Shown piece after piece: positions 13,824-24,877 of a DNA stretch of 64,000 nucleotides. Position numbers and translations under genes: made by a program. The notes beneath the pieces are model-generated. The model was not told where the DNA came from. It did no database searches and worked only from the letters and a program-made list of their open reading frames with translations. The DNA comes from Eledone cirrhosa. Lineage: Eukaryota. Location: positions 156,178,001-156,242,000 of the forward strand of contig OZ024743.1 of assembly GCA_964016885.1 (NCBI GenBank). The letters run 5' to 3'. Position 1 is the first letter of the stretch. Each line of letters opens with the position of its first letter.

Positions 13824-14037
13824 AAATATAAGTATGTATATGTACATTCATATATGTATACAGACGTCCAGTAGTATGTATATATATATACATACATTCA
13901 CAAATATATATATATGTACGTATGGATTCACCGAACATTTATTATAATGCTCGGTGTGTTTATAAATAAAGATCCCGAATTAAGCCGTACAATGTCTAGC
14001 AACAATCGTTGCTAATTTGTTCAACACTGACAAAGGA

Positions 14038-14080
14038 ACGATGTACTAGTTTCAAGCTTATTAGCTATCGTCAGCAACGT
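14038..14080 (-). ncRNA. minimal type-I HHR (family B1)
   Basis: ACGTTG CTGACGA TAGCTAATAAGCTT GAAA CTAG TA CATCGT. Confidence 0.8.
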
Positions 14081-14759
14081 ATACCTTCCTGCCAGTTGAT
14101 TGCACGTCTGAAAGTATATACTATCCCTATGTATATTAACGGCTGAGCACCCTAGTTTGCATATCGAGTGTGTTAATCGGCCAAGCGCACCGAAAATGAT
14201 AAACGGAAAAAATGAAACGAAATTTCATTTCTCACTCTTATTACGGCTGTTACTTAAATATAAGTATGTATATGTACATACATATATGTATACAGACGTA
14301 CAGTAGTATGTATATTTATATACAGACCTGCACACATATATATATATGTACGTATGGATTCACCGAACATTTATTATAATGCTCGGTGTGTTTGTAAACA
14401 AACATCCCGAATTAAGCCGTACATTGTCTAGCAACCATCGTTGCTCATTTGTTCAACACCGACAAAGGAACGCTGTACTAGTTTCAAGACTATTAGCTAT
14501 CGTCAGCAAATATACCTTCCTGCAAGATGATTGAACATCTGAAAGTATATACTTTCCTTGTGCATATTAACGGCTGAGCACCCTAATTTACATATCGAGT
14601 GAGTAAACCGTACTAAGAGTGATAAATGACATTTCGTTTCAGTTTTTCCGTTCATCGTTTTCGGTGCGCCCGAATGATTAACTCGCTCGGTATGCAAATT
14701 AGGCTGCTCAGCCGTTAAGTATATACTTTCAGACGTTCAATCATCTGGCAGGAACGTAT

Positions 14760-14802
14760 ACGTTGCTGACGATAGCTAATAAGCTTGAAACTAGTACAGA
14801 GT
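14760..14802 (+). ncRNA. minimal type-I HHR (family B1), weak helix I
   Basis: ACGTTG CTGACGA TAGCTAATAAGCTT GAAA CTAG TA CAGAGT. Confidence 0.65.
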
Positions 14803-20004: not shown

Positions 20005-20097
20005 CCCCGACGGCAGAGCTCAAGCCGTTTCGACGGCTGTTTCTGGACTATATTAGAATTTTTTGCCCGGTGGATATTAGCCGAACTTCTCAAGGGG
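20005..20097 (-). ncRNA. type-I HHR with U3-A8 core (PLE-2 3' pLTR)
   Basis: CCCC TTGAGAA GTTCGGCT..AGCCGTC GAAA CGGC-TTGAGCTCT-GCCG TC GGGG. Confidence 0.85.
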
Positions 20098-22603
20098 GTA
20101 CTTACTTATATGGGAAGATTGTAGTTGTCAAGAGGATTGGTTAAAATTTGTTGAAAACACAAATAAGTCTATCATGGCTTTTCTTGGGAGGTAGGTGTGG
20201 TTGAACTTGCCTGTAGAACAATAGGGGATTGAGTGGGGTGGTCAAGCGTTGAAAGTGATATGTATACAGCAGATTCTAAGGCTAGTGTATGGAGTGGAGG
20301 AGGGAGGTTATAGAATAGGTAAATCGATGAGAGTAGGAGACAATAAAAGATAATAGATAGAAAGAAAAAAATATATAAAATTAGATAGTGAGAAATAAAT
20401 AAAAATATCATAATGCTATCTTACAATTACAGGTTAATAATTTGAGAATAGAAAAAAGTGTAGAAATTGAGTAGTACCAGAAGTGATAAATAATTAAAGG
20501 GGTTTAACACGTCTGCTATAAGTATTTAGTAAAACGTATTCGGCCAATTCTGTCTTAAAATTACAGGGGTGGGGGAACTGACGCTACAGAGGCCCGATGG
20601 TCTGCATCAGGGTAGGCGAAGGGAAAAAGCAAAGGAGGAAGTAAATAGGGGGTGGAAAGAAACAGGCGGAAGAAAAGACAAAGAGGAAAAGAAAAGAAAA
20701 GAGATACATCTACCTAAGTCAGCTGGGACTTCCCCTAACTTATTCGGCAAGTAGTCGGGTATCAGCCCTTTTCCAACAACTCGAGTCGTTATGGGGTTTG
20801 AGGGCGAGGTATGTCCTACGCAATCTGTGTTTGCATGCGGTTACCAATTCCTCTTTCTTGTATAGGAGTTGGTCCTTCGAAAATAGCATTTGTAATGTTT
20901 CCTCTGAGCGTAAGTTACACGGACGGCTTCCTCCCGTGTAAGAGTTAGCCTTGGACAGTAAGCGCCAAGTGAGATTGTAGGTTATATTATTATCTTGGAG
21001 GTCCCAGATGTGGCCCGAAAGTGTAGTGGCATGTCGCCGGACCGGCTTTCGGAATGTATGTCGGTGTTGGTAGAGCCGGGTCCTGAAGACACACGCGGTT
21101 AATCCTATATAAGCTTTATTCGGCGTGTCCGTCCTCACGTTGCACTGGTAGATCACGTTACATTCTCAGCATTTGTTGTTGAGGGGGCACGTAGATCTCT
21201 CAGGGCTGTTACACCTCCTGGTCGGCTCACCATTGATGTCTAGGTTATTTCTTCCATAGGGGCTGAGTTTTTTGTTGTTTGAGGAGACGATAATTTCTGC
21301 GAAGTTAGGTGTGGTGCTGTAGGAGAGTGTGATGGTGTTTTTGTTGATTATGTTGTGGTAGCGGTGTTGTAGTGGGAGTGTTTTTCGAGGAGTCAAAGAA
21401 GATTTTCCCGATAGGTGTTGCCACCTCGGCATTAGGGGCGGGGGGGGGACTGAACCATGTTACGTGCGTGAGCGGCCGTGTCGCCTGCTGGATCCGGTAA
21501 AGGAAGCTGGATGAAAGGATATTTCCTCCCGAAAGCCACTCCGCTTGAGGGCCTGGTTGTAATGAGGCGCTTGTTCGTCGAATATCTGCTCATTAGCGGA
21601 CAAACGAAGTATGCGGAGGGAGATGTTTTTAACCAGGTTATTGGTGATGCTTCTAGGGTGGTTAGAGCGGCGGTGGATGTAATGCAGGTTGTCGTTTGGT
21701 TTCGTGTATGGGTAGTACAGATCATTTTCGAGGTTAAGGGTAACGTCCAGGAAATTGACTCGGGTTAGGGACGTTGTAGGATGATTTTAAATCCCCAGTC
21801 TCGGAAGAAGTTGATTAGTTGTTTACGGACCCGGTCTGTACTACTGGGGTTGTACCCTTTGAGGGTGAGGAGCCCATCATCCCGGTACAATCCACCGCCG
21901 AATGCAGGAAACATTTAGATGAGTTTAAATAGTAGCAATAGTCCTATAAAATCTGTGACCTCGGCCGAATCCGTCGCGCCCATACTGACGTCGAAGGGGG
22001 AGTCGGGAGATCTCTTTATCCACTTAGAGTTGTCGAAAAGTAAGACTGTCTTCCTGTCGTGGAGAATGATATTTCTTTCCTGCTCAGTGATGGGTGTGAG
22101 TGTTTCGGCAAAATCCAAGGCGGACGTAAAGAGCGGTAAGGTAATTTTAAGATAGAATTGGCCGAATACGTTCTACGAACTACTTACAGCAGACGTGTTA
22201 AACCCCTTTAACTCTCTATCACTTGTGGTACTACTCAATTTCTATAAGTTGTTTCTATTCTCAACTTATTAACCTGTAATTGTAAGATATCACTGTGATT
22301 TTTTTTATTCATTTCTCACTATCTAATTTTATATATTTTTTTAATTTATTTCTATTATCTTTTATTGTCTCCTACTCTCATTCGATGTACCTATTCTATA
22401 ACGTCCCTCCTCTACTTCATACACTAGCCTTAGAATCTGTTGTATACATATCACTTTCAAAGCTTGACCGCTCCACTACTCCTCTATTGTTCTACAGGCA
22501 AGTTCAGCCACTCCCACCAAATGCCATGACAGACTTATTTATGTTTACAACAAATTTTAACCTATCCTCTTGAACACTACAATCTTCCCATATAAGGAAG
22601 TAC

Positions 22604-22697
22604 CCCCTTGAAAAGTTCGGCTATTTATTCCCCAGGCTAAACATTCTAATTTAGTCCAGAAATAGCCGTCGAAACGGCTTGAGCTCTGCCGTCGGGG
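22604..22697 (+). ncRNA. type-I HHR with U3-A8 core (PLE-2 inverted pLTR)
   Basis: CCCC TTGAAAA GTTCGGCTATTT..AAATAGCCGTC GAAA CGGC-TTGAGCTCT-GCCG TC GGGG; predicted cleavage after C22693. Confidence 0.85.
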
Positions 22698-24877
22698 TCA
22701 TACTTTTTCCTATATATATATATATATATGTATAAGTATATGTATACATCTGTATATACATTCTGGTGGCTGGAACAATAATATTGATCGTACTAAGTAG
22801 GCCCGAATAAAATTAATGTCAAATTCATGTTAAGTCTCTGTGAAATCTAAGTCAATCCTACGTCAGGGCTGCCTGGCGTACCTCGAAATGCTACGTTCAT
22901 ATTTGAGTTCTATTGGCTTGATCTCAAAACCGTGACTTGAACCACAATAAATTGGCTCGAAGTTTCAACAATATATAATCCCGATTTTATAAAGTTCATT
23001 TTGTTTCAATGAAATACAGCTTTGCATGAAATTTATTATATATGCATGCACAAAATTAACTCTATCCGTCTAGCTAAGTGAAATGTTGCCGATGTAATTG
23101 TAGCCTCGAGTGAAAACGTTTTACCTAGTAGATTTGCGCATAATTGTGATCTTTGGCTGCTACACAAGTTACATTAATATAACGTATATATTTTGTATAT
23201 GCATGTATATGAGTGCGTTGGGTGCGAGTGTATGTGTTTATCTATCTATTTGTGTATATATGTTTGTGTATCTGTTTTCTATTTGTGGTGTGTATAATAT
23301 CTTATTATATCTGTGGGATTGTATGTTAATGTATATTACGGCATTTAGTTATTTAAACATATTTTAGAGGGACGGCAAACGTCGCAGTAAATTTCATCAC
23401 AATAAAGAAACATTCACATAAATGTTTGGTGTGTGTGTGAGACATTAACTGCGACTTATTATTTCGTAATTTAGTTTGAGAAAAACAGAAAATATTTCAA
23501 AAAAGTAATAAACTTATTATTATTTTTACAAATAAGTATTGCCATCTTCTGAACCTGATAAACGAACAAAAAGTTACATTTCCTCAGATATTACATTGCT
23601 TTCTTCAAAAAGACTTTCCTCACGACATGCGAACAAAGAAGATTCAAAACATTTCAGGAGTTTTAAGTACCATACACAATGATATATCAGCAATTGATTA
23701 ACGAATTGAAGTTGAAAGTCTATACCATTGGAGGTAGACAAAATCACTTAGTGTGCAATGCATGCCGAGTTATTTATGATCGTATTTATGTAACTGGATG
23801 CAAAATAAATGGAATTTCTCAAAGGCTTTGTCATGTATTTAATATTAAATGGGCATTGGGTTTACCTGAAGTGATAGAAAAATGTTTTGACCTCCTTTAA
23901 TAGAGCTAAAATGAAATTGGTTAGCCGAATCTACTATATAGCAGATGTTATAGGAGCGGAATGAAGAGGGTTACTAATGGAATCCACCATTCTCTTCAAG
24001 AGACTTTAATCCTTCAAAATCTAAAAGAGATTGACTAGGAAATAATACATACTATTGCATATTCCGTGGTAGCATGCTAGAATAAAAACACCCGTGGTGT
24101 TACATGATTCATTTAAAGATGACCACAATGAGAGAAAAAATAAAACAATAATGATGATAAAAACATTGATTATATACCTGCAATAACACTGGTTCCAAAA
24201 ATGGTGGTGATAATAATATCAATACTAGTAATAAAGATGAAGTTGCTGTTGTATTGGGTGTTATTGTTGTTGCTGATAATAAGGGTGGTGTTACCGCCAT
24301 CATCAAATAAAATCGCATCAAATAATACCTTACCAGTATTTTTACTGGTACCGGTGTACGTGGACATGGACACACAATATGTTTCTGACCAGTGGTAATG
24401 GCAATATAATGATAGCGAGGACTGCAGACGATAGTTAAGTATTTAAACTTTAATCGGAGCCTGCAAACTCAACCGCTCAAAAGACGGATACATCTAGCAC
24501 TAGAATTTACTATGAAAAGAGATTCCAAATGTCTTATGTCTGCTGGCATCACAACTAGATGGTAAAAGATGACAAACAACGAATACCCATAACTGCACAA
24601 CTACACCTATGATTTTATGAGAATCAGATGAAAGCAAATCCATAACCGTGTACCAAAAATATATATATCGTGCAAAAAAGCAAATACTGTGAATTAAACC
24701 TGTTTTAACTACTTTAATCTGATAAATAAATAGTCCGTCTTTCCTAAACACCATCTTTTAGCTGGAATAAACAACTGGCGTGAAGTGTTTTGGGATTGTT
24801 CGAATCAGTTTATTCTAACGAGCTTACTGAGTAAAAACCACGTTTATGCACGTCATCCTCTCCAATATATATATATA

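Follow-up and report, generated by a model that had tools for sequence, protein, structure and literature searches.

Non-coding hammerhead repeats in the genome of Eledone cirrhosa carry the insertion footprint of Penelope-like elements

The mobilisation of non-LTR retrozymes, which lack long terminal repeats, by Penelope-like elements (PLEs) was proposed in 2020 by Cervera & de la Pena (PMC7229834), hammerhead ribozymes have been described in PLEs themselves (PMC4209133), and Li, Clavereau & Pollet (2026) have argued for a PLE origin of retrozymes from co-occurrence and from a phylogeny of the pseudo-LTRs (pLTRs) of Xenopus PLEs (10.64898/2026.07.22.740005). PLEs with an endonuclease (EN+) are described as leaving an inverted, 5'-truncated copy and a 30-40 bp tail at (TA)n targets (PMC3846280, PMC8557442, PMC11167929); the tail is described as unique to PLEs and maps to two internal start sites of the reverse transcriptase (RT) in vitro (PMC11167929), and it is often found at one end only (PMC8557442, PMC3846280). 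Here we consider three families of non-coding hammerhead repeats, A, B1 and B2 (collectively A/B), and the coding PLEs around them (PLE-1, PLE-2, PLE-3 and the P4 group), in a stretch of 64,000 nucleotides from Eledone cirrhosa (contig OZ024743.1, bases 156,178,001-156,242,000; hereafter the window) and in a sample of the 3.0-Gb genome. A/B insertions display the EN+ PLE signature, that is, an inverted 5'-truncated copy, two fixed 3' ends, a tail at one end and a (TA)n target. The explanation that best fits the whole, and which we consider quite probable, is that A/B are inserted by PLE enzymes that prime both (TA)n strands on one RNA.

The unit length is 520 bp in A, 432 bp in B1 and 487 bp in B2, and the exact B ribozyme motif occurs in 23,477 copies genome-wide. 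Helices I-III can be read around a type I hammerhead core (CUGANGA, GAAA and NUH), and this core is intact in 68/72 A, 88/95 B1 and 98/100 B2 pieces. Arms of more than 1.2 head-to-tail units are common (A 26/75, B1 44/90, B2 42/77), the longest having 8.3 units. The longest methionine-initiated open reading frames (ORFs) per A/B unit are 31, 55 and 62 aa, and tblastn of A/B against seven PLE proteins gave no match below E 0.9. With a predicted hammerhead, dispersed tandem units and no apparent protein coding, all three families would qualify as non-LTR retrozymes. The window has no Rfam match at the gathering score; at E<=10 the matches are TA-driven miRNA look-alikes and one weak hammerhead (HH9, 19453-19523, E 0.062). 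Our first hammerhead scan passed over A, PLE-2 and PLE-3, owing to its helix-II limit or to variant cores, and a wider scan recovered A.

To place these families in the genome, the best-scoring copies of each (30 loci per family) were combined with 80 further stretches, giving 245 non-redundant stretches (1.1 Mb, numbered with the prefix L), a sample biased towards window-like copies long enough to contain the query and in which passengers in the flanks were also counted. Excluded before counting were 21 insertions at stretch edges, pieces shorter than 60 bp and pseudo-hits in TA zones. Where both sides were in view, 28/44 insertions of A, 30/52 of B1 and 27/44 of B2 were head-to-head (85/140 for A/B), compared with 43/82 for PLE-2 and 32/61 for PLE-3 (75/143 together). 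A tally of orientation had been called for in the original prediction, and it puts about 60% of A/B insertions in this form. The script that counted head-to-head joins does not join tail-to-tail pieces; a separate adjacency check of the sampled stretches found no tail-to-tail join within A/B, and the two same-family adjacencies of this kind, both of PLE-2, read as separate insertions. Lists of motif positions, which are free of score bias, agree with the best-score sample. Counting by eye around the first 100 places of a PLE-2 subfamily motif (9,931 exact copies genome-wide) gives 21 cases in which a minus-sense copy is followed by a plus-sense one within 6 kb, and none in the opposite order; and the first 66 of 100 listed places of the B motif in genome order resolve, also by eye, into 38 insertions, 20 of them head-to-head. 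Among controls, none of 28 copies of an RTE long interspersed element (LINE) with the 5' end in view has an adjacent inverted copy, and the family has one 3' end; 193 pieces of a short interspersed element (SINE) yielded three head-to-head and three tail-to-tail adjacencies, with that in L286 alone resembling a true truncated join. Some 490 bp from one RTE copy, that in L206, lies an inverted duplicate of 113 bp that is unexplained.

Each family has two fixed 3' ends, one short and one tailed, a feature absent from the original prediction. The tail measures about 118 nt in A, 59 in B1 and 62 in B2, and 80 nt in PLE-2, 57 in PLE-3, 95 in PLE-1 and 40 in P4; for circular units, calling one end short and the other tailed is a convention that takes the nearer of two distances. 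When both ends of a head-to-head pair could be classed, one was short and the other tailed in 25/25 A, 27/27 B1 and 22/23 B2 pairs (A/B 74/75), as well as in 33/35 PLE-2 and 21/22 PLE-3 pairs (p<1e-5 against 0.5 in each of these five families). P4 behaves likewise in 25/25 pairs, a few P4 stretches having been chosen because a pair was visible but none by end type, which brings the scripted PLE total to 79/82. By eye, all 13 classable B pairs in genome order were short plus tailed, with seven unclassable, and so were 5/6 PLE-1 pairs. Single copies comprise 67 tailed and 47 short. Since the short and tailed ends match the tail signature published for PLEs only, A and B carry a PLE-specific footprint, and we regard the one-arm tail as a more telling sign of PLE mobilisation than anything in the original prediction. 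Two other classes of element were considered and rejected for A/B. A LINE-mobilised SINE does not fit, there being no single 3' end with a simple-repeat tail and a target-site duplication. Nor does a miniature inverted-repeat (MITE) or foldback DNA transposon, which would have identical terminal inverted repeats and a fixed interior: in A/B one end carries a tail that the other lacks, and the position of the junction varies in nearly every copy.

The flanks point in the same direction. A TA run follows the 3' end in 68/69 A, 60/78 B1 and 61/66 B2 cases (189/213 for A/B), and in 89/111 for PLE-2 and 64/81 for PLE-3, against a background of 8.7%; SINE flanks (12/111) equal a background of 11%. 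Duplication-like repeats were found at 0/43 A, 2/52 B1 and 1/44 B2 insertions (3/139 for A/B) compared with 9/25 for RTE, with the proviso that a duplication of pure TA would escape detection. The expected bias towards TA is therefore present in the tally, and LINE-type target duplications and tails are absent. Because each of the A/B and PLE families inserts into (TA)n, they crowd together. Taking the head-to-head joins, the TA flanks, the lack of LINE-type duplications and the tail on one arm only, the proposal that A/B are mobilised by PLE-type machinery is upheld, and we are confident that PLE enzymes insert A, B1 and B2.

Inverted 5' ends are also produced by LINEs. In LINE-1 twin priming, a single RNA is primed from both target strands, and a 5' inversion results when microhomology brings the cDNAs together; the inverted piece is copied from further upstream in the RNA, and the 3' end is present once. 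In A/B and the PLEs, by contrast, each arm begins at a fixed 3'-terminal site, the two sites being separated by the length of the tail, and the stretches that the arms copy overlap. SINE-like mobilisation by RTE or another LINE, with twin-priming inversions, might nevertheless be entertained, given that LINEs have been named as an alternative helper (PMC7229834) and that an RTE family is abundant in this genome; yet both A/B arms have 3' ends, A/B lack target duplications and a simple-repeat tail, and RTE itself shows none of the features, and we consider this explanation highly improbable.

We propose the following mechanism. A GIY-YIG endonuclease would cut both strands of (TA)n, and a two-subunit RT would extend the 3'-OH of each, starting at the short site for one and, 40-118 nt downstream, at the tailed site for the other. 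With retrozyme RNA as template, whether circular or an uncut multimer, the RT might run round for up to about eight units. The two cDNAs would stop independently, and their growing ends would be joined through microhomology of 2-7 nt or by a few added bases; where one cDNA is lost, a single-orientation copy with either end type would remain. In vitro, a PLE protein has been seen to cut both strands and to extend them; it initiates at two internal, tail-defining sites and is predicted to form a dimer (PMC11167929). We judge the paired two-start priming step to be likely in its own right. A wider generalisation is put forward tentatively: PLEs would integrate by a paired reaction in which a two-subunit enzyme on one RNA starts at both tail-defining sites, one for each target strand; this reaction, and not self-priming, would make the inverted pLTR, and retrozymes would be copied likewise, as rolling circles.

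There is an alternative with a single PLE priming, in which the cDNA primes itself by folding back, the endonuclease trims at the other site and the palindrome loses its centre asymmetrically. Such self-priming has been proposed for palindromic PLE junctions (PMC3846280), with the tail ascribed to endonuclease resolution (PMC8557442), and it would account for shared variants between arms and for microhomology. Both are seen. Opposite arms of one insertion resemble each other more than they resemble other insertions, agreeing at subfamily sites in 43/48 (A), 105/107 (B1), 37/37 (B2), 104/115 (PLE-3) and 8/9 (PLE-2) cases, where agreement between insertions is 0.49-0.63; and microhomology of at least 2 nt occurs at 16/30 A/B and 17/23 PLE junctions that are cleanly resolved, against 18% in simulation. 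However, self-priming needs kilobase one-sided deletions even in P4 copies that are 99% identical (for example, arms of 4025 vs 2043 and 2013 vs 131), and the break-off points in A/B look uniform rather than mirror-like: those of the two arms fall within 15 nt of each other in 9/74 pairs against 5.9 expected (p 0.12), as if unrelated, and in 24/74 pairs neither arm contains the other. The short-ended arm extends further 5' than the tailed arm in 24/54 PLE-2/3 and 8/16 P4 pairs. Moreover, 47/114 single copies are short-ended, yet only 1/132 pairs is short plus short. Two primings, one per strand and start site, fit best because fold-back requires large one-sided deletions and would yield short-plus-short pairs whenever a cDNA was primed at the short site; we therefore think it unlikely, if still worth considering, that self-priming is the general route.

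Several observations weigh against two-strand priming by PLE enzymes, or qualify it. The in vitro study saw the same start sites on the top and the bottom strand, and leaves the pairing untouched (PMC11167929). Variants shared between arms indicate one source RNA or, as would also be expected, one subfamily active at a time. Strict scoring gave no clean join for 35/65 A/B and 35/58 PLE junctions. PLE-3 has near-symmetric junctions in 3/21 cases (p 0.02) and four short exact snap-backs, both of which speak for self-priming, so that this process also happens, as a minor route in PLE-3. The pairing has exceptions, three tailed plus tailed (one of which, L279, reads as tailed plus short on inspection) and one short plus short, as well as one tailed-plus-tailed case among the six PLE-1 pairs by eye, and 28 head-to-head insertions have an end that fits neither class. 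In the hammerheads of A and B, helix II is not closed by the canonical G10.1-C11.1 pair, so that cutting may be poor, and either a circular or an uncut multimeric template would suit the sequence evidence. Finally, no helper PLE was found when the pLTRs of PLE-1, PLE-2 and PLE-3 and 42 further GIY-YIG loci were compared.

Could the inverted arms be artefacts of assembly, produced by fold-back long reads? The window's own junctions are bridged by no read or contig in the short-read data that we examined, as such an artefact would allow, but the arms differ by about 2-4% on average and by up to 13%, and they end at different fixed sites. Opposite-strand joints also occur in short reads from two other studies (four listed on A and at least ten on PLE-2), which possibly come from another individual or species and for which the direction of the join is not given. 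An artefact is barely credible.

The arrays themselves appear to be about as old as the insertions that contain them, because units within one arm are as divergent as opposite arms and share few private variants. Divergence within arms and between opposite arms is 1.65 vs 1.94% in A, 4.38 vs 4.25% in B1 and 1.39 vs 1.99% in B2, private variants common to the units of one arm amount to 3-16%, no more than between opposite arms, and arms of up to 8.3 units run through predicted hammerhead cut sites. Arrays were thus likely written at insertion, as a circular or uncut multimeric template would predict, and not grown later by unequal crossing-over. The opposing idea is that monomers were inserted, that arrays grew by unequal crossing-over and that the inversions reflect host repair at (TA)n cruciforms. 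Local amplification is the model of the 2026 preprint (10.64898/2026.07.22.740005), the units of one insertion are closer to one another than to those of other insertions, and the window contains inverted duplications on TA runs that match no sampled repeat family (e.g., 51270-51976 and 37895-39030). Growth in place does not predict fixed short and tailed ends or their pairing, however, and is largely refuted by them; units of the same arm share no more private variants than opposite arms, and inversion is shown by 0/28 RTE copies and by one convincing case among 193 SINE pieces. We regard this combination as very improbable.

The original prediction further held that A/B parasitise the neighbouring PLE types, which was not borne out. 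The terminal repeats of PLE-1, PLE-2 and PLE-3 show no similarity to A/B (best E 0.066), and no sound A/B-PLE chimeric junction was found among the sampled loci, three cross-family adjacencies being put down to nesting, to a pseudo-hit in a TA zone and to ambiguity between B1 and B2. The proximity of A/B and PLEs in the window reflects their common targeting of TA. When ends were compared with ends (72 comparisons), a P4-group short end was the partner of A or B in each of the top three, the best being the tailed end of B with a P4-group short end (p 0.002 uncorrected, 0.14 corrected), which makes this Neptune-type group a weak lead as a possible helper. The same likeness, and the fact that the analysis covered only about eight PLE types, might be taken to mean that A/B are detached pLTRs of an autonomous PLE outside the sample, amplified as such, and in Xenopus retrozymes match PLE pLTRs in 24/57 families (10.64898/2026.07.22.740005). 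Against this, none of 146 A/B copies is continuous on its 5' side with PLE coding sequence in the same orientation, the 17/146 with PLE fragments within 300 bp read as neighbours, and the 3' regions of the 42 GIY-YIG loci show no similarity to A/B beyond nested A/B copies among the matches listed. Since the longest ORF per unit is 31-62 aa and the likeness to P4 does not survive correction, we find the detached-pLTR origin doubtful.

The coding families can be ordered provisionally by their motifs. PLE-2 and PLE-3 have an RT followed by a C-terminal GIY-YIG, a pLTR with a hammerhead-like motif and a tail, as read in translations; Pfam assigned no family to pieces of either and recognised GIY-YIG in PLE-1 (below the cut-off) and P4. 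The Hydra clade is marked by a DKT motif, a CxCX5C linker, no CCHH and a CxxC before a conserved E (PMC8557442). A PLE-2 copy (L279) has DKT and CxxC-E and lacks CCHH, while the second C of CxC is missing in both PLE-2 copies read and present in the PLE-1-like L220; from these motifs, PLE-2 and PLE-1 are provisionally Hydra-like. Translations of L131 and L213 contain a CX2-5CxxC linker and an endonuclease CCHH, marks common to Neptune and Nematis, and PLE-3 and P4 would accordingly resemble these clades. P4 (L351-L402) is a very young PLE family, which shows 99% protein identity among the 150 matches listed and many open RT-endonuclease frames of 784 aa; it also occurs as tandem arrays with a classic 40-nt tail, and one copy (L368) has a 436-aa ORF upstream. 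Its pLTRs have variant cores next to a palindromic helix III. Divergence from the column majority is about 1% in A and B2, 2.5% in B1 and 2.6-2.9% in the sampled PLE-2/3 copies, by which measure A and B2 are estimated to be younger than those copies and B1 to be of matching age.

PLE-2-type subfamilies also give rise to very many head-to-head or single insertions of about 130-230 bp (L403-L432; window 52577-52671 and 39840-39926). We dropped the idea that PLE-2-like minis of about 200 bp are a separate small-RNA family, as they are truncations of coding PLE-2 subfamilies. In the short insertions the break-off point is the tip of hammerhead helix II, 50-62 nt upstream of the short end, and the join frequently carries an added T or A; read depth jumps more than 10-fold there (window 22648-22700), and this looks like stalling of the RT at the ribozyme. 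The PLE-2 core here (window 22598-22705; also L407 and L420) is non-canonical, reading CUUGANAAG/CCUGAGAAG rather than CUGANGA, while a full hammerhead-shaped fold, a three-way junction, is kept. In the flanks of the sample lie at least six further hammerhead repeat families, several of them arrays with opposite-strand partners (L213:313-2287, L260:216-1154, L274:3099-3690, L002:2664-3149, L221:1713-1722 and L261:5945-6029); that in L260 has a 469-bp period and a helix III in common with B.

Within the window, self-BLAST and family mapping confirmed the shared build at all six sites originally listed: an arm in minus sense comes first, an arm in plus sense second, and the two meet at their 5' sides, the sense being set by the hammerhead core in A/B and by a broken RT/GIY-YIG ORF in PLE-2 and PLE-3. 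The claim that both outer ends run into (TA)n stood at five of the six, the B1 insertion at 42 kb being a poorer fit, a count that depends on reading 19923-20001 (78 nt, PLE-2) and 48757-48812 (56 nt, PLE-3) as the elements' own tails. Arms overlap by 0-5 nt at the four A/B junctions. The first B1 insertion has a minus arm at 13824-14610 (1.8 units of 432 bp, hammerhead core at 14074), whose short 3' end lies on (TA)n at 13653-13823, and a plus arm at 14608-15064 (1.1 units, core at 14766, predicted hammerhead cut after 14796) that overlaps it by 3 nt and ends in a tail at 15013-15064. Family A follows with a minus arm of 1.4 units (520 bp each) at 15798-16511, its short end lying on (TA)n at 15587-15797, and, overlapping by 5 nt, a plus arm at 16507-17135 (1.2 units) with a hammerhead core read from the sequence at 16891-16960 and a tail at about 17022-17135 (118 nt). 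B2 comprises a short-ended minus arm at 17226-19460, of some 4.5 units, each of 487 bp and with internal TA that varies in length, with cores at 18014, 18561 and 19053, and a tailed plus arm at 19461-19865 (0.8 unit, core at 19471, tail about 19803-19865).

PLE-2 has a minus arm at about 19923-22145, a 5'-truncated, broken and Hydra-like RT (YRDD) and GIY-YIG ORF with pLTR and 78-nt tail, its tailed end on (TA)6, and an inverted pLTR as plus arm at 22141-22710 with its short end on (TA)n. The second B1 insertion runs from 42144 to 42711 on the minus strand, with a tailed end, and from 42707 to 42823 on the plus strand, where it stops in its own internal TA tract; its left flank is only about (TA)3, and its host is the head-to-head remnant of a Neptune-type PLE (42093-43098) from which about 530 bp have gone. 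PLE-3 combines a tailed minus arm at 48757-50488 (truncated RT thumb, C-X4-CxxC linker, GIY-YIG, pLTR and 56-nt tail) with an inverted plus arm at 50489-51242, whose short end lies on (TA)n 51244-51269. A small head-to-head insertion of P4, a Neptune-type PLE, has the same build at 47296-47627 and was absent from the original list. PLE-1, which is Hydra-like and near full-length (1727-6640), has direct pLTRs and a hammerhead at 6069, and an RTE fragment sits inside it at about 3724-4365.

Other repeats in the window deserve mention. Small palindromes at 41684-42026, 47296-47627, 6487-6638 and 60831-60968 are, or resemble, short head-to-head insertions of repeat families, namely PLE-1-type, P4 and two without family assignment. 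Inverted duplications centred on a TA or TG run (37895-39030, 43332-43517, 51270-51976 and 10925-10985) are arranged the opposite way to the elements; for most of them the sampled loci contain no matching repeat family, and they are possibly repair products at TA breaks. An abundant and often clustered SINE of about 190 bp (15390-15586, with relatives at 46555, 48363, 56578 and 30523) has a head that we take, from its box motifs, to be of tRNA type, and a middle that may resemble the Nin domain; the SINE and the TA-richness of the sequence would be in keeping with a cephalopod. A GC-richer 37-bp tandem repeat (25183-25397) has 5.4 copies, and a nearby 155-aa stop-to-stop frame (26164-26631) has no Pfam match.

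The question of what moves animal retrozymes is thus approached through a PLE-specific footprint that is visible at retrozyme insertions even where homology is lacking, and our data speak against later local growth of arrays. If the mechanism is correct, a retrozyme of animals brings two start sites of its own that have no homology to pLTRs, tandem arrays arrive ready-made, and the pairing of short and tailed ends becomes a sequence-only test of PLE dependence for any repeat. It would also account for a considerable fraction of this genome's small palindromes, as the abundance of the B and PLE-2 subfamily motifs indicates. As to how PLEs make inverted ends, the pairing, with arms that come from one source but break off independently, yields a prediction precise enough for the in vitro PLE system that already exists, and the young P4 family, with its open 784-aa frames, makes that prediction testable in this genome.

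The PLE-retrozyme link is less novel than was at first claimed, as the July 2026 preprint already argues for it. Terms for head-to-head arrangement, tails and TA targets are absent from the main text of PMC7229834 and of that preprint, the supplements of which might bear on this; the preprint's main text likewise never mentions an insertion site and leaves insertion structure aside. We found no report of a PLE tail or inverted arm in retrozymes, or of counted pairing, although subscription papers, Repbase and the PLE reviews of 2005-2006 may describe these qualitatively. What is new is real structural evidence for a proposed link, and a quantitative rule that constrains PLE integration.

Like metazoan non-LTR retrozymes, A/B consist of non-coding head-to-tail units with a type I hammerhead and a palindromic helix III, dispersed in many copies beside PLEs. 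Their units of 432-520 bp compare with 170-400 in one account (PMC7229834) and 51-972 in the other (10.64898/2026.07.22.740005); they differ from published retrozymes in having no detectable homology to the pLTRs examined, so that the link rests on insertion structure, and in that the data favour writing of arrays at insertion where the preprint models later local expansion (10.64898/2026.07.22.740005). The non-autonomous Chlamys elements, such as MRC1 (PMC8557442), are similarly non-coding parasites of PLEs with multicopy head-to-tail insertions. As described there, they generally share 3' sequence with an autonomous partner and mostly lack hammerheads, whereas A/B have hammerhead motifs and no clear homology to a partner. 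Relative to previous accounts of EN+ PLEs, the one-arm rule has been counted here (79/82 PLE pairs) and extended to non-coding families, with tails of 40-118 nt (in A/B longer than the 30-40 bp described before), and the arm lengths argue for two primings over self-priming in most cases.

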